Part shown: one piece after another, positions 3,909-18,668 of the stretch
Numbering within the stretch: the stretch's first letter is position 1
How the letters are laid out: each line of letters starts with the position of its first letter
NCBI GenBank assembly: GCA_038209745.1
Contig: JBBQXJ010000089.1
Location: forward strand, 1-18,668
DNA length: 18,668 nucleotides
Direction: 5' to 3'
Source: Verrucomicrobiota bacterium
Lineage (GTDB): Bacteria > Verrucomicrobiota > Verrucomicrobiia > Limisphaerales > CANJSG01
The notes under the pieces: model-generated
Seen by the model: only the letters and a program-made list of their open reading frames with translations
Database searches by the model: none
Told to the model about the DNA's origin: nothing
Position numbers and translations under genes: made by a program

Positions 3909-6900
3909 CTACTTGTGCTTGCGCAGGAATCCGCTGATCCGGTCGAGCAGTTCGCTGGGTTGATAGGGTTTCTGGAGGATTTCTCCGTCGATGTCCAAGC
4001 GACCGTCGGCCTTGAGGAATTCGCCGCCGTAGCCGGAGGCGTAGAGAGTCGGCACTTCCGGATCCAGTTCACGGATCTGTTTCACCGCTTCGGGGCCGCT
4101 CAGGCGCGGCATGATCACATCCATCAACAGCAGGTCGACGCTTTCGTTGTGTTCGCGGAACAGCGCCACGGCTTCTTCGCCGTCCCGGGCGGAGAGGACG
4201 GTGTAGCCGGCTTTCTGGAGGATGCGGGTGGCGAGCAGGCGGACGGCCTCCTCGTCTTCGGCCACGAGGATGGTGCCTGAGCCGCGTTTGATCGGGATCT
4301 CCCGGGTCACGCGCTGGGCTGCGATGGTGCCGGGGCTGGCCGGGAGGTAGATGCGGAGGGTGGTGCCGAGGCCAACCTCGGAGTCGATGCGTAGATTGCC
4401 CCCGTGCTGCTGGATGATGCCGTAGACGACGGACAGGCCGAGGCCGCTTCCCTTGTTCTTGTCCTTGGTGGTGAAGAACGGCTCGAAGATGTGGGGAAGA
4501 TTCTCCGGGCTGATGCCGACGCCGTTGTCCGCGACGTTCAGACGGACGCAGGGACCGAAGGGGAGGGGTCCGATGACACTCGTGTCGCCCTCGGCCGATG
4601 CGTAGTTGAGCGGCGTGATGCTGATGGTCAGCCTTCCGCCACGGGGCATGGCGTCACGCGCGTTGACCGAGAGGTTCATCACCACCTGCTCGATCTGGCC
4701 CCGGTCGGCGTAGATGACCGCGGGCTCGTCGGCGGGCTGGAATTCGATCTCGATGTCGGCTCCGAGCAGGCGCCGGCTCATGTCGAGGGCTTCGCGGACC
4801 ACCAAATTGAGATCGAAGTGGAGTTTCTGGAGCGGCTGACGACGGCCGAAGGCGAGGAGCTGCTTGGTCAACTGCGCGGCGCGACGGGCCGCCTTCTTGA
4901 CTTCGATGAGGGAATTCTCCCGGTCGTCGGCCGGCACTTCCTTCTCCAGTGCGATGGAGCTGTGGCCCATGATGACCTGGAGGATGTTGTTGAAATCGTG
5001 GGCGACGCCACCGGCGAGCAGGCCGACGGCCTCCATTTTCTGGGCTTGGCGCAGCTGGGCTTCGAGCTTCTCGTGACGAGCCTCGGCTTCCTTGATGGGG
5101 CTGAGGTCGCGCATGACGAAGGAAAAGAAGTCGACCGATCCGTCGGCGCTCTTGTGGCAGAGCATCACCTGGGAGACGAGGAGGGATCGGGCCGCGTTCG
5201 ATTTCAGCGCCATTTCCCCGGACCACACGCCCCGCAGAATACTGGCCGGCACGGCTTCTTCGTGGAACCGCGTGATCGATTCCGAGGCAAGGACGGAGTC
5301 GAACGGCAGGGACCGGTCGAGCGAGGGCGCGGCCACTTCGAGCGTTCTGCAGCCGGCCGGGTTCAGGTAGAAGATCCTCAGGTCGAGACCGGCGAAGGCG
5401 ACGACGTCGCTGGTGGTTTCAAGCACGGAGGCCAAGCGGGCCTTTTCGCGGGCGAGGTGTCCCTGTTGTTCGACGAGCAGGTCGTGGCGCAGGATGTGGG
5501 CGCGGGAAGAATTCCAGACCAGTCCTCCGAGTCCGCCCATGGTTCCGAGAGCGATGAGCGTCCGGAACCAAAGCGTCTGCCAATACGCGGGCTCGATGAC
5601 AAAGCCGACACTGGCGACTTCTTCGCCCCAAGCGCCGTCGGAGTTCGACGCCTTGATCTGGAAGGTGAACTTGCCGGGAGGAAGGGAGTGAAACGGGACG
5701 GTGCCGGGTCCTTCCAGTTCGGTCCAGTCCTGCTGGAGTCCGAGCAGGCGGTAGCGGAAGTGGATCCTTCCCGGTGCGTCGAAGTTGATTCCTGTGAAGC
5801 GCACTTCGATCCGTCGAGCTTTCCTGGACAGGGTGGCTGTAGTGCCCAGAGGCAGCTGGACGGCCCGCTCTTTGACGGCTGGATTGAAGATCGAATCGGG
5901 GGCGGGCTCGAGCTCTTGGTCGTCTGCCGGGCGGTCGAGTGGTTCGAAGCTGACGAGCGACTCGATGATCGGTCGGCACGGCTGGGACTTGGTGTGGAGA
6001 GTCGCGGGATCCGCCGTGCTGAATCCTTTGCCGGTGCCGACGAGGAGCAGCGGCCGATCTCCTGCCGGGCCCAGCACCAGGGAGGCGCTCCGGATCATCG
6101 AGCCGGCGAGGCCGTCCTTGGAATCGAACCGGGCCCAGATCGGGGTGTCGGTTGTTGGACCAGTGGCCTTTTTCAATTCGTGCGTCGAAACGTGGAAGAG
6201 ACCGTCCTTCGAGCCGAGCCAAAGAGTTTCGGACCCATCAACCGCGAGACAGGAGAAGGCGGGGATGGCCGGCAATCGGGAATCGGAGACGGCCTCCACG
6301 GAACCGTTTTGAAGGACGCCCAGCCGACTGCCCGAACCTGAAAACCAGATCTTTCCATCGGGGCCCGCTGCCATTGCTGTTATTAGTCCGAGCCTGGCTT
6401 CCGACACCTTTTGGGCGGGCTCCAGTCGGCCGTCGCGCAGCGCGAACAGACCCGCCGGCAATGTGGCGACGTAGGTGGTCTTGCCGACCACGAGAAGGCG
6501 TACTGCCCCCGAGATTCCGCCGGGCGCTTCGATGGCCGTGGCGTTGGTGCCGCGGAGGACGAACAGGCCGTGCGAAGTGGCGATCAGGGTTTCCCCGGGA
6601 CCGGCCGCCGCCAAGTCATGGACCGAGACGGGGCCAGAGGCCGGGAGCGCGACTTGGGTCGGTGCGGATCCGGGGACCACTTGGAACAATCCGTCCGGGG
6701 AGCCGACCAGGAGCCGACCGTCGGAAGCGGCCACAGCGCATGTCGCATTCGGCACAAAATCCAGAAGACTACCCGGAGTCGAGGTGCCGTCGGAAAGTTT
6801 GATCGCCGGCCCAGTCCATGGATCGGCGAGCAAACGGGCTCCGGGGGACGATTCGACGAGGTGGGCCAATGCAAGAGAGGTGGTGCCGGAAAGGGGATGG

Positions 6901-10338: not shown

Positions 10339-11901
10339 ATGAATCTATCCGAAGGTCTGATTGGCGGAACGACCGTCTTTTTTGTCGGAGCCATCACCGG
10401 CTATTGGGTGCTGCGCTGGAAGGAGCGCGGCGTGGCGGTAGCCCACGAGCTGGAACGACAATCGCGCCTCGATGCCGCCCGGCGCGAAGCCGAAGCGCTC
10501 CTGCGCGAGGCGAGGCTCGCCTCCAGCGAAGAATCCATGGAGATCCGCCGCAAAGCCGATACTGAGATCGGAGAGAGACTGAAAAGCGCGGCTTCCGTTG
10601 AACAGGCGGCATCTGATCGCCGGACTGCCGCGGAACGGATGGCGGGCGACGTGGCCCTCCGTGAGGAGCGGATCGACGCTGAGGCCAAACGACTCGAACA
10701 AAGGGCGGAGACGCTCGAGGCTTCTGAAAAGGAAGCCCGGGAACTGGCGGAGGAGGTAAAGCAGGCGCTCAGCCGCATCTCCGGATTGAACCCCGCAGAG
10801 GCGCGCGAGCAGCTGCTCAAGCAGATCGAGGGCGAATCTCTCAGCGATGCTGCACGGCTGGTGCGCAACGTGATCGAGGAAGCGAAGGTGCGATCCGAAG
10901 AAACCGCCCGAAAGATCCTGACCGTCGCCATCCAGCGGTTTGCCGGCACCCATACCTCGGATATTTCGACCGCGACCGTCGCGCTCAGCGGGGACGACAT
11001 CAAGGGCCGCATCATCGGCCGTGAAGGCCGGAATATCCGTGCCTTCGAATTGGCCACCGGAGTGACGGTGCTCATCGACGACACTCCAAACGCGGTCGTG
11101 CTTTCCGGCTTTGATCCGGTCCGCCGAGCCATTGCCCGGGAAGCGATGGAGCGCCTCATCCTTGACGGCCGGATCCATCCGACCCGCATCGAGGAAGTCG
11201 TCGCCAAGGTGACCGAAGAGATGGATGAAACGATCCTGCGATCCGGTGAGGACGCCGTCGTCAAGGCCGGCGTCGGTCCGATGCACTCCGAGTTGGTGAA
11301 GTTGCTGGGGCGCCTCAGATTCCGGCATTCGTTTTCCCAGAACATCCTCGATCACTCGGTGGAAGTGGCCCAGCTGTGTGGGCTGATGGCTTCGGAAATC
11401 GGCATTCCACTCATCCCGGCGAAGCGGGCGGGCCTGTTGCACGACATCGGCAAGGCCGTCAACCACGAGGTCGAAGGCGCCCATGCCCTCGTCGGTGCCG
11501 ACATCGTTCGGCGGTGCGGAGAGCCGGAGGACATCGTCAACGGCGTCGCGTCGCATCACGATGAGGTGCCTCACGTCGGATTGCTCGGGATCCTCGTCAG
11601 TGCGGCCGACGCCATCAGTGCTTCGCGCCCCGGAGCCCGCTCGGAAACCATGACAACCTATCTGCGGAGGGTGGAGAACCTCGAGCGGATCGGCATGTCG
11701 TTTCAGGGAGTTGAGAGGTGCTATGCCGTCCAAGCCGGTCGCGAGGTGCGGGTGCTGGTCCGGCCCGAACGCATCTCCGACGACGAAAGCCTTCTTTTGG
11801 CCCGCAACATTGCGCGGCGAATCGAGGAGGAATTGCAGTATCCCGGTCAGATCCGCGTCATTGTGCTTCGCGAAACCCGCTGCACCGAATACGCGAAATA
11901 G
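10339..11901 (+). CDS. rny: Ribonuclease Y
   Basis: N-terminal TM helix, coiled coil, KH domain KGRIIGREGRNIRAFE, DGRIHPTRIEE, HD domain GLLHDIGK, ADAISASRPGAR, AVQAGREVRV, YPGQIRV. Confidence 0.97.
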   Translation: MNLSEGLIGGTTVFFVGAITGYWVLRWKERGVAVAHELERQSRLDAARREAEALLREARLASSEESMEIRRKADTEIGERLKSAASVEQAASDRRTAAERMAGDVALREERIDAEAKRLEQRAETLEASEKEARELAEEVKQALSRISGLNPAEAREQLLKQIEGESLSDAARLVRNVIEEAKVRSEETARKILTVAIQRFAGTHTSDISTATVALSGDDIKGRIIGREGRNIRAFELATGVTVLIDDTPNAVVLSGFDPVRRAIAREAMERLILDGRIHPTRIEEVVAKVTEEMDETILRSGEDAVVKAGVGPMHSELVKLLGRLRFRHSFSQNILDHSVEVAQLCGLMASEIGIPLIPAKRAGLLHDIGKAVNHEVEGAHALVGADIVRRCGEPEDIVNGVASHHDEVPHVGLLGILVSAADAISASRPGARSETMTTYLRRVENLERIGMSFQGVERCYAVQAGREVRVLVRPERISDDESLLLARNIARRIEEELQYPGQIRVIVLRETRCTEYAK

Positions 11902-13953: not shown

Positions 13954-15663
13954 ATGCCCGAAGCCGCCAAAGCACCTGTTTCCGAGAAGCCTCTCGTCAA
14001 GAATGAGCACCTGAAGATCGCGATCCCCACTCTAGCGGGAAACATCGCCGCCACCCTGCACGATCCGGCGGCCCTTTGCTTCACCCATGACGACTACGAG
14101 TTCCTGAAGTTCCATGGCATCTACCAGCAGGACGACCGGGACGACCGCAAGACCGGCAAACACTATATCTGGATGATCCGCGGCCGGATCCCCGGGGGCG
14201 TTCTCAATGCCAAGCAGTGGATCGCCTTCGACGACGTCGCCACCAAGCGGGCGAACAACACCCTGCGTGTCACCACGCGCCAGAGCATCCAGTTCCACGG
14301 CGTCGTGAAGGAGGGCTTGGGGCCGTTGATGAAGGAGATCAACCAGTCGTTGCTCGACACCTTGGCGGCATGTGGCGACGTGAACCGCAACGTCATGGCC
14401 TCGCCTGCTCCGGCAATCACGGCGGCGCGCCAGCAGGTGTGGGAAGACTCCAAGCTCGTCTCGGATTCGCTCATGCCCCAGACCAAGGCCTACCACGCCA
14501 TCTGGATCGACGGCGTTCAGCTCAACCTGGAAGATCCGGCGAACAAGGACTTCGTCGATCCGCTCTACGGCAAGCAATACCTCCCGCGGAAGTTCAAGAT
14601 CGCCTTCGTCATTCCGCCGGTGAACGACATGGACGTCTTCACCAACTGCCTCGGCCTCATCGCCGTCATCGAGAACGACCGGCTCCTCGGCTACAATTTG
14701 ATCGCTGGCGGCGGCATGGGCCGGAGCCACGGCAACACCGTGACCTACCCGCGCCTTGCGGATGTGATCGGCTTCTTCCCCCGTGAAAAACTGGTCGAAG
14801 TGGCCAAGGCCGTCCTGACCATCCACCGCGATTTCGGCGACCGCACCGATCGCAAGCACGCCCGCCTCAAGTATGTCTTGGAGGAGAAGGGCGCCGCTTG
14901 GTTCCGGGGCGAAGTGGAGCACCGCATCGGCGCCAAGCTGGAAGAAACGAAACCCTTCAAGTTCACCACCACGTCGGACACCTACGGTTGGCAAAAGGGT
15001 CTCGATGGCCGCTGGTTCCTGACGCTCTTCGTCGAGTCCGGCAGGATCAAGGACACGGAGACCCGGAAACAAAAGACCGCGCTTCGCCGTGTGGCCGAGG
15101 TTTTCGGCGGCGTCGAATTCCGCCTCTCGGCCAACCAGAACGTCCTCATCGCAAACGTCGCGGATGCTGAGAAGGACGCCATCACCGCGCTCCTCGGCGA
15201 GCACGGCGTGAAGACCGAGAAGCAGACCACCTTGCTGCATGCCGCCGCCATGTCGTGCCCGTCCATGCCGACGTGCGGCCTGGGCTTGGCCGAGTCCGAG
15301 CGCTTCCTGCCGACCCTCATCGACCGCATCGAAGCCGTCTGTGCCGACGTCGGCATCGGCGACCAGGAGATCATCATCCGCATGACCGGTTGCCCGAACG
15401 GCTGCGCCCGTCCCTACATGGCCGAGATCGGGTTCGTGGGCAAAGGCCCCGGCCGCTATCAGGTCTGGCTCGGCGGCAACCAGAACGGCACCCGCCTGAA
15501 CAAGGTCTGGAAGGAAATGCTGAAGGAACCCGACACCGAGGCCGAACTGCGCCCGCTCCTCGTCCGCTACAAAGCCGAGCGCACCGCCGGCGAACGCTTC
15601 GGCGACTGGGTGGAGCGTGTGTTCTGGAAAGAGCAGCCGGCGGAAGCCGCTGCGGCGAACTGA
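13954..15663 (+). CDS. cysI: Assimilatory sulfite reductase hemoprotein subunit (siroheme/[4Fe-4S])
   Basis: LKFHGIYQQDDRD, TTRQSIQFHGV, ACGDVNRNV, YLPRKFK, RKHARLKY, CPSMPTCGL and RMTGCPNGCARP cluster-binding motifs; in an operon with cysH and cysD. Confidence 0.95.
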   Translation: MPEAAKAPVSEKPLVKNEHLKIAIPTLAGNIAATLHDPAALCFTHDDYEFLKFHGIYQQDDRDDRKTGKHYIWMIRGRIPGGVLNAKQWIAFDDVATKRANNTLRVTTRQSIQFHGVVKEGLGPLMKEINQSLLDTLAACGDVNRNVMASPAPAITAARQQVWEDSKLVSDSLMPQTKAYHAIWIDGVQLNLEDPANKDFVDPLYGKQYLPRKFKIAFVIPPVNDMDVFTNCLGLIAVIENDRLLGYNLIAGGGMGRSHGNTVTYPRLADVIGFFPREKLVEVAKAVLTIHRDFGDRTDRKHARLKYVLEEKGAAWFRGEVEHRIGAKLEETKPFKFTTTSDTYGWQKGLDGRWFLTLFVESGRIKDTETRKQKTALRRVAEVFGGVEFRLSANQNVLIANVADAEKDAITALLGEHGVKTEKQTTLLHAAAMSCPSMPTCGLGLAESERFLPTLIDRIEAVCADVGIGDQEIIIRMTGCPNGCARPYMAEIGFVGKGPGRYQVWLGGNQNGTRLNKVWKEMLKEPDTEAELRPLLVRYKAERTAGERFGDWVERVFWKEQPAEAAAAN

Positions 15664-15698: not shown

Positions 15699-15938
15699 AT
15701 GAACTCCTCGGAGCCAGACAAGCTGCACGATGCGGATAGAACCTTTGGTTCGGATAGCAGCTTGTCCGACGCCGACGCGGAACTGCGGGTCTACTGGCGA
15801 TCTAAGACGCCCTAGGAACGGTGGAAAGCCTTGGAAGAACTGCGAATCCGAATCTATGGCGAAGAGGCAATTAACGCCCGAGGTCAAAGAGTTTTTGGCG
15901 GAACTCCGAAGCGTATTTTAGCCCAAACAAGTTCATGA
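15699..15938 (+). pseudogene. Small hypothetical (antitoxin-like) gene interrupted by an in-frame TAG
   Basis: MNSSEPDKLHDADRTFGSDSSLSDADAELRVYWRSKTP*ERWKALEELRIRIYGEEAINARGQRVFGGTPKRILAQTSS*; TAG at 15813-15815; the final TGA overlaps the next ATG (ATGA 15935-15938). Confidence 0.6.
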
Positions 15939-16174
15939 GCAACGACACGCTGCTGCCCGATACGAAGAGCCCGCTCATCTGGATCAACCCAGAGCGGGTC
16001 AGCGGCGCGCCGTGCTTCTACAAGACGCGTCTGCCCATCGACAGCCTGTTCGAGAATCTGGAGGCGGGCGTGAGTCTGGACGAGTGGCTGGACGCCTTTC
16101 CCGACATCACCCGTGAACAGGCTCAGGCGGTTCTTGAGTTCGCCAAGCGTTCCATGTTTGCCAGCGCGGCATGA
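15935..16174 (+). CDS. DUF433 domain antitoxin (VapB45-like)
   Basis: INPERVSGAPCFYKTRLPIDSLFENLEAGVSLDEWLDAFPDITREQAQAVLEF is the DUF433 pattern; ATGA overlap with the downstream PIN gene. Confidence 0.92.
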   Translation: MSNDTLLPDTKSPLIWINPERVSGAPCFYKTRLPIDSLFENLEAGVSLDEWLDAFPDITREQAQAVLEFAKRSMFASAA

Positions 16175-16488
16175 AGGTGCTCTTCGACGTCAACATGCCG
16201 CGTCCATTGCGTCGGGAGCTTCCCGGACACGAGGTCGTCACCGCCCAGGCCATGGGCTGGGGCGAACTGGTGAACGGCGACCTTCTGCAAGCAGCGGAGA
16301 AGGAAGGCTTCGATGCGTTTGTGACGGCGGATCGGAAACTCCGCCATCAACAGAATCTGACCGGTCGTCGCATCGCGATCTTGGTCGTCCCGAGCAACAA
16401 CCTGCGCGTCCTGGCACGGATCGCTTCGGCCATCCGGTCGGCCGTGGACCAGCTCAAATCCGGCAACTACGTCGAACTGACCGCCTAA
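16171..16488 (+). CDS. DUF5615 family PIN-like toxin (VapC45-like)
   Basis: MKVLFDVNMP, GHEVVTA..MGW, NGDLL..AE..GFDAFVTADRKLRHQQNL; coupled to the DUF433 gene. Confidence 0.9.
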   Translation: MKVLFDVNMPRPLRRELPGHEVVTAQAMGWGELVNGDLLQAAEKEGFDAFVTADRKLRHQQNLTGRRIAILVVPSNNLRVLARIASAIRSAVDQLKSGNYVELTA

Positions 16489-16535: not shown

Positions 16536-17201
16536 ATGACTCCCGACCAGATCACCCAGGCCAACGTCGAACTCCGCGACAAGTCCGCCCTCGACATCGT
16601 CAAGTGGGGCCTCGCCCAAGCCGGCGGCTGCGCCATCGTCTCGACCAATTTCCGGCCCTACGAAGCCGTCGTCCTGCACCTCGTCACCCAGGCGCACCCC
16701 GACATCCAGGTTCTCTGGGTCGATCACGGCTACAACCGCCCGGCCACCTACCAGCACGCCGAAGGGTTGAAGACCCGGCTCAAGCTGAACATCAAGGCCT
16801 ACATTCCCAAGCTCACCGCCGCCCATTACGACGCCGTCTACGGAGGCATGCCCGAGCCCACGCCGGAGAACGAGGAGCGCATCAAAGCCTTCAGCACCGC
16901 CATGAAACTGGAACCCTTCCAGCGTGGCATGAAGGAACTCGCGCCCACCGTCTGGATCACCGCATTGCGCAAGGTGCAAAATCCGAACCGCGCCGGCCTC
17001 GACATCGTGAGCCCCGACGGCAACTTCGGCTCACTCAAGCTGAGCCCCGTCTTCCACTGGACCGACGCCGACATGGAAGCCTACTTGGCCCAGCACAACC
17101 TTCCGAACGAGTGGGACTACTTCGATCCCGCCAAAGCCGACGAAAAGCGCGAGTGCGGTCTCCATGCGGCGTGGGGTGGAAAAGCCGTGGCCCAAGCCTG
17201 A
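16536..17201 (+). CDS. cysH: PAPS/APS reductase family protein
   Basis: STNF, LWVDHGY, KLEPFQR, WITALRK, KLSPVFHWT, C-terminal catalytic ECGLH; lies between cysI and cysD. Confidence 0.9.
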   Translation: MTPDQITQANVELRDKSALDIVKWGLAQAGGCAIVSTNFRPYEAVVLHLVTQAHPDIQVLWVDHGYNRPATYQHAEGLKTRLKLNIKAYIPKLTAAHYDAVYGGMPEPTPENEERIKAFSTAMKLEPFQRGMKELAPTVWITALRKVQNPNRAGLDIVSPDGNFGSLKLSPVFHWTDADMEAYLAQHNLPNEWDYFDPAKADEKRECGLHAAWGGKAVAQA

Positions 17202-17205
17202 GGGA

Positions 17206-17717
17206 AGACACGAATTCCACGGATTATCACGAATGAAGACCTGCATCCTCATGCTTCAGCAGCAATTCGTGACAATTGGTGAAATTCGTGGCTCAACGAA
17301 AGGCTGCTCCGATGTCTGATCTCCTCTTCAAAGAAGAGAGCTTCCAGCTCGTGGGGCTTTGCATGGAGGTGCATCGCGATCTGGGCAAAGGCCATGATGA
17401 GATCATCTACAAGGACGCGCTCGTCGTTGAATTGAGTCGGGCGGGCATCCCATTTGAGCGGGAGAAGAAACACGAAATCACCTACAAAGGCGTTCTTCTG
17501 GCGCATCCCTATTTCGCGGGTTTTGTCGTTTGGAACAAAATCATTTTCGAGGCGAAAGCCATCGAATCCCTCGCAGACTCCCATATCAAACAAGTCCTGA
17601 ACTACCTGGCCGCGTCGAAACTCCGGCTCGGCCTGCTGGTCAACTTCGGCGGCGACTCCTTGGAATGGAAACGCGTCGTTCTCTTAGCATTCGTGCCTAT
17701 TCGTGAAATCCGTGTCT
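17206..17717. repeat. Three 30-bp arms of triple CACGAAT/ATTCGTG heptamers forming inverted repeats around the GxxExxY gene (candidate mobile cassette)
   Basis: Left arm 17206-17235 AGACACGAATTCCACGGATTATCACGAATG; inverted arms at 17264-17293 and 17688-17717, each 24/30 identical to the left arm after reverse complementing. Confidence 0.85.
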
Positions 17718-17719
17718 GA
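17312..17719 (+). CDS. GxxExxY protein (PD-(D/E)xK nuclease superfamily)
   Basis: LLFKEESFQLVGLCMEVHRDLGKGHDEIIYKDAL (GxxExxY = GHDEIIY), ITYKG, KIIFEAKA, QVLNYL, GLLVNFG..SLEWKR. Confidence 0.93.
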   Translation: MSDLLFKEESFQLVGLCMEVHRDLGKGHDEIIYKDALVVELSRAGIPFEREKKHEITYKGVLLAHPYFAGFVVWNKIIFEAKAIESLADSHIKQVLNYLAASKLRLGLLVNFGGDSLEWKRVVLLAFVPIREIRV

Positions 17720-17731
17720 GTTTTTGTTTCA

Positions 17732-18668
17732 ATGAGCAGCTATCATTTAGACCACCTTCAATATTTGGAGACCGAGGCCATCCACATCATGCGGGAAGTG
17801 GCCGCCGAGTTTGAGCGGCCCGCGTTGTTGTTCTCCGGCGGCAAGGATTCCATCTGCCTCCTGCGTCTCGCCGAGAAGGCCTTCCGCCCGTCCGAGATCC
17901 CGCTGCCGTTCCTCAACGTCGAGACCGGCCATGAGTTTCCCGAGTTGATCGAGTTCCGCGACCGCCGCGCCAAGGAACTCGGCGCCAAGCTCATCGTCCG
18001 CACCGTGGATGAAGCTGTCGCCAAGGGGGCCGCGACCTACACGCCCGGCCAGATCAGCCGCAACCAGCTCCAGATCCCCGTCCTCCTCGGCGCCATCGAG
18101 GAATTCCGCTTCGACTGTGCCATCGGCGGCGCCCGGCGCGACGAGGAAAAGGCCCGGGCCAAGGAACGTTTTTTCAGCTTCCGCGACGGCTTCGGCCAGT
18201 GGGATCCCAAGAACCAGCGTCCCGAGATCTGGAACCTCTACAACGCCCGTCTCAACCCCGGCGAAAACATGCGCGTCTTTCCGCTCTCCAACTGGACCGA
18301 GATGGACGTCTGGGAATACATCAAGCAGGAGAAGCTTGAAGTGCCACGCATCTACTTCAGCCACACCCGAGATTGTTTCCGCCGTGGTGGCCAGTGGATT
18401 CCCGTCCCGACGCCGCACACCGATGCCACCAAGCCCGATCCCTACGAAGGCGCGCGTCCCAGGCCGACCGATGAGATCAAGTCCCTCGTCGTCCGCGTCC
18501 GCACCATCGCCGACATGATCAGCACCGGAATGATCGAGAGCCCGGCCATCACCGTGGACGACATCATCGGCGAAGTCGCCGCCGCCCGCGTGACCGAACG
18601 CGGCACCCGCGCCGACGACAAGGCCAGCGAAGCCGCGATGGAAGACCGCAAGAAGGCCGGGTATTTCT
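17732..18668 (+). CDS. cysD: Sulfate adenylyltransferase subunit 2 (stop codon cut by the window edge; absent from the ORF track)
   Basis: From ATG 17732: HLQYLETEAIHIMREVAAEFERPALLFSGGKDS, GGARRDEEKARAKERFFSFRD.FGQWDPKNQRPEIW, MRVFPLSNWTEMDVW, ending MEDRKKAGYF at the window end. Confidence 0.97.
   Translation, partial: MSSYHLDHLQYLETEAIHIMREVAAEFERPALLFSGGKDSICLLRLAEKAFRPSEIPLPFLNVETGHEFPELIEFRDRRAKELGAKLIVRTVDEAVAKGAATYTPGQISRNQLQIPVLLGAIEEFRFDCAIGGARRDEEKARAKERFFSFRDGFGQWDPKNQRPEIWNLYNARLNPGENMRVFPLSNWTEMDVWEYIKQEKLEVPRIYFSHTRDCFRRGGQWIPVPTPHTDATKPDPYEGARPRPTDEIKSLVVRVRTIADMISTGMIESPAITVDDIIGEVAAARVTERGTRADDKASEAAMEDRKKAGYF

Follow-up and report, generated by a model that had tools for sequence, protein, structure and literature searches.

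The locus described here, a small gene between inverted repeat arrays, is best introduced through the systems that it resembles. RAYT (REP-associated tyrosine transposase) genes and their REPIN or REP-BIME repeats are treated in PMC3116915, PMC3333891, bioRxiv 10.1101/2022.05.22.493013 and 10.1101/2021.07.10.451892, and in the relevant part of one of these sources RAYT genes are given as single copy and vertically inherited (bioRxiv 10.1101/2022.05.22.493013). As far as those accounts describe them, our locus is similar in that a single-copy gene stands between inverted copies of its own repeat, which is also scattered through intergenic DNA as hairpin doublets, several gene/repeat families coexist in one genome, and inheritance is vertical with long persistence. 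In contrast to REPIN/RAYT, its enzyme has a minimal PD-(D/E)xK fold instead of being an HUH Y1 (IS200/IS605-like) transposase, each arm is made of three phased heptamers where the RAYT system is described with one palindrome, the doublet interiors are unrelated between loci, and the copy numbers are low (~8 to 25 loci per family).

Ssn enzymes (GIY-YIG) are site-specific single-stranded DNA (ssDNA) nucleases for which ssDNA cleavage and an effect on transformation have been demonstrated (Chenal et al. 2025, PMC11893778). According to the sections of that paper that deal with the NTS/SRM repeats, this small nuclease gene has, on either side, a repeat that forms hairpins and is dispersed in the genome, as ours has, and the association of SRM with ssnA across phyla comes from the same kind of co-occurrence count as that used below. 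However, the two nuclease superfamilies are unrelated and the repeat anatomy is different, and the cleavage demonstrated for Ssn is a proposal for our locus.

The intervening sequences (IVS) of 23S rRNA, as characterized in part of PMC4990558, are elements of ~430-444 nt that carry one small ORF, close with a 28-bp terminal stem and are excised by RNase III. Our unit shares with them, on that description, a size of ~0.45-0.5 kb, terminal inverted repeats of ~28-30 nt, a single small ORF (S23p in the IVS), a sporadic distribution and vertical upkeep once acquired (PMC4990558). Sibling cassettes at the cysH-cysD junction of three related genomes (G008, G030 and G033) even carry a gene of the IVS ORF family, PF05635. 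Unlike an IVS, the unit lies between the protein-coding genes cysH and cysD and not in a 23S rRNA helix, its ORF belongs to the nuclease-fold family PF13366 instead of PF05635, and its arms consist of repeated heptamers that pair at 24/30 positions.

Insertion sequences and MITEs have terminal inverted repeats, gene-less derivatives that share their ends, and insertion polymorphism between genomes. The unit likewise has terminal inverted repeats, gene-less relatives with the same ends, and presence or absence between genomes. Nevertheless, a DDE, HUH or serine/tyrosine recombinase is missing from it, no duplication of the target site could be seen, its gene-bearing copy is single and stable at its locus, and the gene-less copies share the arms only. 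The one functional entry that we found in the literature for the GxxExxY (PDDEXK_3) family is "Unknown", in a superfamily table of 2012 (PMC3424549, as far as that table goes). In the main texts of the literature on GxxExxY/PF13366, on IVS and on REP-like repeats, we could not find a description of this widespread gene-plus-heptamer-array architecture.

The window, that is, the whole stretch of 18,668 nucleotides that was analyzed, contains the following features in and around the unit.

13954-15663: sulfite/nitrite reductase gene (PF01077 and PF03460)
16536-17201, forward strand: cysH-like PAPS/APS reductase gene, the upstream flank (PF01507, E 1.5e-25)
17206-17235, forward strand: left arm, three CACGRAT heptamers at 17209, 17218 and 17228, set 2 and 3 nt apart
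17265-17293, reverse strand: internal array, heptamers at 17265 and 17284, a degenerate CACCAAT lying in between
17312-17719, forward strand: GxxExxY gene with a PD-(D/E)xK fold, ATG at 17312
17688-17717, reverse strand: right arm, three CACGRAT heptamers at 17689, 17699 and 17708
17732-18667, forward strand: cysD, sulfate adenylyltransferase small subunit, the downstream flank (NF003587, E 2.8e-121), running off the window

The unit is 512 bp long and fills nearly the entire cysH-cysD gap, starting 4 nt after the cysH stop codon (17199-17201) and ending 14 nt before the cysD ATG at 17732; the cysH-like gene also matches NF002537 (E 4.4e-40), under that model's curated cut-off. The arms are 30 nt each, inverted and complementary at 24/30 positions (80%), and their CACGAAT or CACGGAT heptamers follow each other with a start-to-start pitch of 9 then 10 nt, counted from the outer end. 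All these measurements reproduce the original prediction, as does the finding that the unit is free of DDE and HUH genes. Its inventory of the arms was right for the two terminal ones and overlooked the array at 17265-17293, which matches the left arm in inverted orientation (83% over 29 nt, 30 nt apart) and the right arm in direct orientation (83%). The anatomy of the unit is therefore [+][-] gene [-], where the left arm and the internal array make up a doublet of the gene-less hairpin type considered below; the ssDNA fold of this region (17202-17297) reaches -19.4 kcal/mol (z -4.25), equaled by 0/200 shuffles. In the window as a whole, CACGRAT has 16 matches against 5.63 expected, a number reached in 0/200 shuffles, and eight of the 16 fall within 17209-17714.

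The only cargo is indeed a GxxExxY gene, the sole ORF in the unit with a family match; its product matches PF13366, its only Pfam family, with 114.2 bits (cut-off 22, E 5.6e-33) and TIGR04256 with 128.4 bits (cut-off 35, E 1.7e-37). The motif reads G27-H-D-E30-I-I-Y33, with E30 invariant and G27 and Y33 near-invariant among 32 sequences, and E30, E80 and K82 are conserved among the aligned family members. Of the complete PD-(D/E)xK catalytic set (strand-2 Asp, strand-3 E/D-x-K), the window's copy keeps E80 and K82 and has lost Asp70, this column being Asp in 31/32 aligned sequences and Gly in the window's (codon 70, 17519-17521). The predicted structure (pLDDT 94.3) finds its best PDB structural matches in Cas4 SSO0001 (E 9e-4), Cas4 Pcal_0546, lambda-exonuclease-like enzymes and Hjc, and its fold matches RecB-like nucleases too; given these neighbors and the practice of the superfamily, Asp70 would be the expected metal ligand of the PD-(D/E)xK site. 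A sequence search of the PDB with the same protein gave 0 matches at E <= 0.01, and a homodimer prediction (score 0.10, mark 0.42) carries no weight either way.

The conserved GxxExxY domain stops at codon 124. Codon 125 (17684-17686) is TTA in the window and TGA in the orthologues and in three other populations; because this ancestral stop is now TTA, the stop of the gene lies at 17717-17719, past the right arm, which is read through by a 12-codon tail. The populations were compared through contigs from four metagenome runs on sediment or soil, all of which bridge the cassette. TGA at codon 125 was found in 3/4 runs and the Asp70 allele (17520 G>A) in run X9 only, the window's allele being the most degraded among the four. 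The variants listed, to which nine unlisted differences must be added, comprise at least 9 nonsynonymous and at least 3 synonymous changes in the GxxExxY gene against at least 4 nonsynonymous and at least 11 synonymous ones in cysH and cysD; among the arm variants listed, one falls in a spacer (17217) and one at heptamer position 5 (17710). Judging by the change of Asp70 to Gly, the lost stop codon and the excess of nonsynonymous polymorphism, the window's copy is probably inactive and decaying.

The framing of genes by arms was scored as the best inverted match between the two flanks of a gene, using 300 random pseudo-genes of the window's assembly as the null (median 9, 99th percentile 14.0). 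The 99th percentile was exceeded by 26/30 PF13366 loci in 41 related genomes, one of the four misses lying at a contig edge, and by 74/80 homologues from public genomes. These 80 loci were found with a single protein query and therefore represent close homologues only (63-86% identical to the window's protein); their record titles name Verrucomicrobiota, including Pedosphaera, Limisphaerales, Udaeobacter and Opitutaceae. The heptamer words vary (CACAGAG, CGCAGAT, CGCGAAG, CAGGAT and others) and the pitch is constant at 8-11 nt. CACGRAT arrays were also found around GxxExxY proteins 35-48% identical to the window's (G009:C29, G030:C48, G035:C4), so that the link between the heptamer word and the protein sequence is a loose one.

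Within the window's assembly (G000; 4.58 Mb, 140 contigs), each of the three PF13366 genes is framed by its own heptamer family: the window's by CACGRAT arrays, the gene at C12:4104-4451 by CGCTRAT arrays and the gene at C32:44674-45012 by two 137-nt CACAGAT doublets that match at 97% over 140 nt. The association of arms with GxxExxY genes that had been anticipated from the window thus holds for 3/3 genes here, as it does in the relatives and the close homologues. The window's gene and the other two are distant paralogues (34-37% identity), and the genome holds no recent copy of it. Exact triple arrays number 23 for CACAGAT, 8 for CACGRAT and 6 for CGCTRAT, with 0 for the patterns read backwards, and a loose array pattern has 109 matches vs 13 in shuffles. 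Most of these arrays are convergent pairs, 8-320 nt apart and without a gene between them, forming intergenic hairpin doublets. The CACGRAT spacers are 2 then 3 nt in 8/8 exact arrays. For CACAGAT, the heptamers are identical at 0.92 when the arms of a pair are compared and at 0.91 when different loci are, the corresponding values for the spacers being 0.60 and 0.63; in their spacers, paired arms are therefore no more complementary than arms of unrelated loci, and conservation acts on the heptamers, not on the stems. The contrast between conserved heptamers and variable spacers, noted in the window by the original prediction, is consequently a genome-wide one.

The origin of the gene-less doublets was considered along several lines. 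Their interiors are unrelated between loci, matching in two pairs only, so that copying of whole units was rejected. Descent from decayed cassettes is not demonstrable, as the doublets hold no gene remnants: hmmsearch --max on all six-frame pieces found only the three GxxExxY genes and six PF05635 genes. As for deletion between the direct arrays of a [+][-] gene [-] unit, the doublet at the cys junction of G023 differs in spacer style and therefore gives this model no support. One region (G000:C12:13290-14459) has three CACAGAT arrays, with interiors of 799 and 290 nt that contain ORFs of 134 and 115 aa. At several loci, the left arm begins right at, or within, the stop codon of the gene upstream, as in TGA|GACACG, TAG|ACACG and CGTTAA|T within a CGCTAAT-like word (L003, L015, L023; G000:C12:4060-4085), and the arm termini often read T(T/G)AACC; the arms may thus bring their own stop codons.

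The distribution of arrays among genomes was followed for two families in up to 11 genomes. CGCTRAT arrays number 6 in G000 and 26 in G020, where a CGCTRAT-armed gene exists (at G020:C229, arrays stand on either side of the gene), and elsewhere 0 in each of G001-G006 and G013, 2 in G011 and 1 in G023. CRCGAAG arrays number 24 in G001, 12 in G003, 11 in G004 and 7 in G005, all of which have a gene with such arms, and 0 in G000, which has no such gene, and in G002 (79% complete). Both families are thus shown to occur only or mainly where the matching-armed gene occurs. This co-occurrence makes the strongest case for a cassette that supplies or requires something specific to its family, for which its only gene is the candidate. 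As in RAYT systems, there is one gene per repeat family (3 genes, 3 families), the gene is vertically inherited, and the family is present where the gene is present (two families, up to 11 genomes). Against a strict association, G001, G002 and G004 have 1-3 CACGRAT arrays and yielded no protein with 70% identity or more.

Taken as a class, these cassettes consist of a GxxExxY nuclease-fold gene of ~120 residues framed by inverted arrays of three phased heptamers, and a resident gene accompanied by scattered gene-less repeats agrees better with the data than an insertion element that hops. We assign a probability of roughly one half to a partnership between the resident gene and its cognate dispersed repeats, like that of RAYT with REPINs or Ssn with NTS, in which we infer that the protein acts on the arrays. 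The GxxExxY protein would read its own heptamers, with one protomer per heptamer at the fixed pitch of 9-10 nt, and would cut at or near folded or single-stranded arrays. Such cutting would drive, in trans, the copying, replacement and upkeep of the gene-less doublets, analogously to RAYT acting on REPINs or Ssn on NTS repeats, with the gene itself staying put. Against the partnership stand the interiors of the gene-less doublets, unrelated between loci and hence unlike REPINs or MITEs copied whole, the dispersal of PF05635 arrays without a nuclease fold, the CACGRAT arrays around proteins of 35-48% identity, the few CACGRAT arrays in G001, G002 and G004, and the lack of a target-site duplication. 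If true, the partnership would provide a function for the large GxxExxY family and explain many "hypothetical" intergenic repeats of Verrucomicrobiota and other phyla. It would also add a third fold, beside HUH (RAYT) and GIY-YIG (Ssn), to the nuclease-plus-dispersed-repeat systems, pointing to their repeated evolution, and supply small proteins whose 7-base specificities are varied and readable.

The same framing is found around genes of the four-helix-bundle family PF05635, which are arm-framed in 19/28 loci by arms of contiguous 7-8-mers. Around GxxExxY genes the arms have a period of 8-11 (26 loci), compared with 6-8 around PF05635 genes (17 loci), and arm geometry therefore goes with the cargo family. 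In G000, the PF05635 gene at C12:11405 (unit 11261-11830) has inverted (GCCGGAT)n arms of period 7 and encodes no nuclease fold, and 46 (GCCGGAT)n arrays are dispersed in the genome, with 0 in the reversed control. Dispersal therefore needs no nuclease borne by the cassette, and a host or third-party activity behind it is possible. Some of these arrays occur as convergent pairs (examples of the arrays are C33:46403/46540 and C13:5106/5202), and a few seem to lie within coding sequence (C52:28588, C9:8105). We tentatively extend the partnership, at somewhat worse than even odds, to a general scheme in which GxxExxY nucleases and, in parallel, S23p-like four-helix-bundle proteins would be sequence-specific readers of their own phased arrays, that is, a second and a third independently evolved class of REPIN/RAYT-like replicators. 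In this scheme, the pitch (9-10 vs 7-8 nt) would encode the seating of multimers on DNA, and the heptamer word would co-diversify with the protein, which would amount to a natural library of small nucleases that differ in 7-base specificity.

The likeness to IVS elements raises the idea of a cassette acting at the RNA level, whose arms would pair in the transcript so that RNase III cuts the stem, frees the mRNA of the small gene and leaves the operon functional; the gene-less doublets would then be REP-like RNA stabilizers, and the job of the protein would be unrelated to the arms. Size and anatomy do match those given for IVS elements in the part of PMC4990558 concerned, genes of the IVS ORF family occupy arm-framed cassettes at cysH-cysD (G008, G030, G033), and the RNA fold of 17195-17735 is closed by the left arm pairing with the right arm. 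Yet this whole-unit fold is no better than those of shuffles (z -0.73, 24/100 as good), heptamer sequence is kept where spacer complementarity is not, and pairing as a stem calls for neither a word repeated three times at constant pitch nor a pitch specific to the cargo family. Only 1/24 classifiable doublets lies between divergent genes vs 17% of all intergenic regions, as a transcript-level role would have it, although this orientation bias must be taken as a weak hint because the GC3-based gene calls are crude (2590 genes; 10/34 units called "in gene"). Since an RNA cassette also leaves the family-specific co-occurrence of arrays and genes unexplained, we regard it as unlikely.

Another reading makes the genes passengers: a host or other trans-acting activity would move or convert arrays by their structure, and GxxExxY and four-helix-bundle genes would be interchangeable cargo, each serving its own function, for instance in defense or addiction. 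Indeed, the architecture and the junctions are common to two unrelated families of small genes, and the four-helix-bundle cassette also has a dispersed array family. Comparisons between related genomes moreover show that the occupants of a given site are swapped. At the C32 site, G000 and G005 have the doublet-gene-doublet arrangement with CACAGAT, G003 has one gene-less unit with hybrid heptamers, and G001 has one CACGGAT unit; the flanks are conserved among congeners, all interiors are unrelated, and the switch of heptamer family would suit a passenger role of the gene. Nevertheless, a generic activity explains neither the near-confinement of arrays to genomes with the matching-armed gene, nor the cargo-dependent pitch of the arms, nor the strong purifying selection on the heptamer sequence, and we consider this reading rather improbable. 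In one gene-less unit (L074; G003:C201, ~2700-2880), CACAGAT, CACGAAG and CACGAAT are mixed within one arm, which suggests either in-place conversion between families or recombination between units.

In the proposed partnership, the gene would stay in place. Among the 80 close homologues, 31 are located between cysH and cysD (Opitutaceae-labeled records included), 24-26 between leuA and a class I tRNA synthetase gene (arms CGCGAAT/CGCTAAT), 13-14 after an ECF sigma gene (arms CACGAAT/CACTAAT) and ~8 in rare contexts, each main context having its own heptamer variant. In the related genomes, the cys junction is occupied by an orthologous cassette in G006 (same genus), G014 and G039, by gene-less doublets of three different heptamer families in G005, G023 and G020, and by a PF05635 gene between other arrays in G008, G030 and G033, and is reduced to a 23-nt gap that ends like an array terminus in G001, G003 and G004 (same genus). 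Four congeners thus have no such gene there, and the gene-free junctions that the original prediction had called for are present in relatives. The junction offers an allelic series for the gain, loss and swap of occupants, its states being near-empty, a gene-less doublet of one of three families, a GxxExxY cassette or a four-helix-bundle cassette. The 23-nt gap (L006, L007 and L009, from G003, G004 and G001) contains CCGTGGTTAAG, which is similar to the right-hand end (…CTGTGGTTAAG) of the CACAGAT doublet filling the same gap in G005; on this resemblance, the "empty" gap may have been left by a deletion instead of being a naive site.

Ranked by protein identity, the cassette gene gives the same order as cysH, and its distances in the cys set correlate with those of the flanks (Mantel rho 0.41, 0/999 permutations as high), to be compared with a rho of 0.49 between cysH and cysD. 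Between the cys-junction orthologues, dN/dS is 0.06-0.10 at a pS of 0.61-0.77, where synonymous sites are saturated, and the arms of four of them keep CAC.-AT, nearly all change being at heptamer position 5 (A/G). These comparisons show that purifying selection acted on gene and arms between genera. Because of the 31/80 loci at the same junction, the correlation with the flanks and the low dN/dS, they also show that the window's unit is an ancient, vertically inherited resident of the cysH-cysD junction. The recent insertion supposed by the original prediction is contradicted by the presence of the same gene between cysH and cysD in those 31 of 80 species-level relatives, and its hopping element by the vertical tracking of the cys genes, which it had itself named as a result that would speak against it. 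Nothing was found in support of a nuclease that moves the whole unit, and the catalytic Asp, nearly invariant elsewhere, is lost in the window's copy; what stands of the mobile-element reading is the association of arms with the gene, the existence of gene-free junctions and the lack of a DDE or HUH gene, and what finds no support is the recency and mobility of this copy.

An autonomous insertion element, in which the arm-gene-arm unit transposes or homes with the GxxExxY nuclease as transposase or homing endonuclease and prefers stop/start junctions, would account for the ~10 different contexts among close homologues, the two close copies in each of four genomes, the different occupants of the cys junction and the C32 site in related genomes, and a homologous ABC-permease junction that holds a cassette in G000 and G020 and none in G001, G003 and G005. 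It is, however, quite improbable in view of the 68-71/80 loci confined to just three conserved contexts, gene divergence that tracks the flanks, the three G000 genes being distant paralogues (34-37% identical to the window's), the lack of any contig that skips the cassette in the four metagenome runs (where rare excision could escape, as contigs drop rare variants), and the lack of an evident target-site duplication in the junction comparisons, where flank divergence limits detection.

Several sites were considered as filled/empty pairs and set aside. The ABC-permease operons of G001, G003 and G005 that correspond to the C12 cassette have 62-66% protein identity, no closer than that of G020, so that orthology and the direction of change are uncertain. 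For the CACGRAT doublet at G000:C75:4793-4852, neither flank has an equivalent next to it in five congeners; the doublet lies exactly at a synteny break, with its flanks on different contigs in 5/5 congeners. The CACGRAT doublet at C25:47237 is in a region without counterpart. At the ABC-permease junction where G000 and G020 have the CGCTRAT cassette, G006 (L087; G006:C714, ~6060-6850) contains a different ORF of ~230 aa without arrays.

Returning to the window, the sole contig joints listed for the four runs fall within cysD, on short fragments that belong to other organisms. The summed contig depth over the left-arm region (17186-17239) in runs X2 and X9 is ~50 vs 31 on both sides, as expected if the community's other array copies also aligned there. 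A DUF433 gene (E 1.7e-16) and, after it with a stop/start overlap, a DUF5615 gene (E 7.4e-07) separate the sulfite reductase gene from cysH (15935-16488) and form a second small insertion in the cys cluster, a pair that we take to resemble the toxin-antitoxin type.
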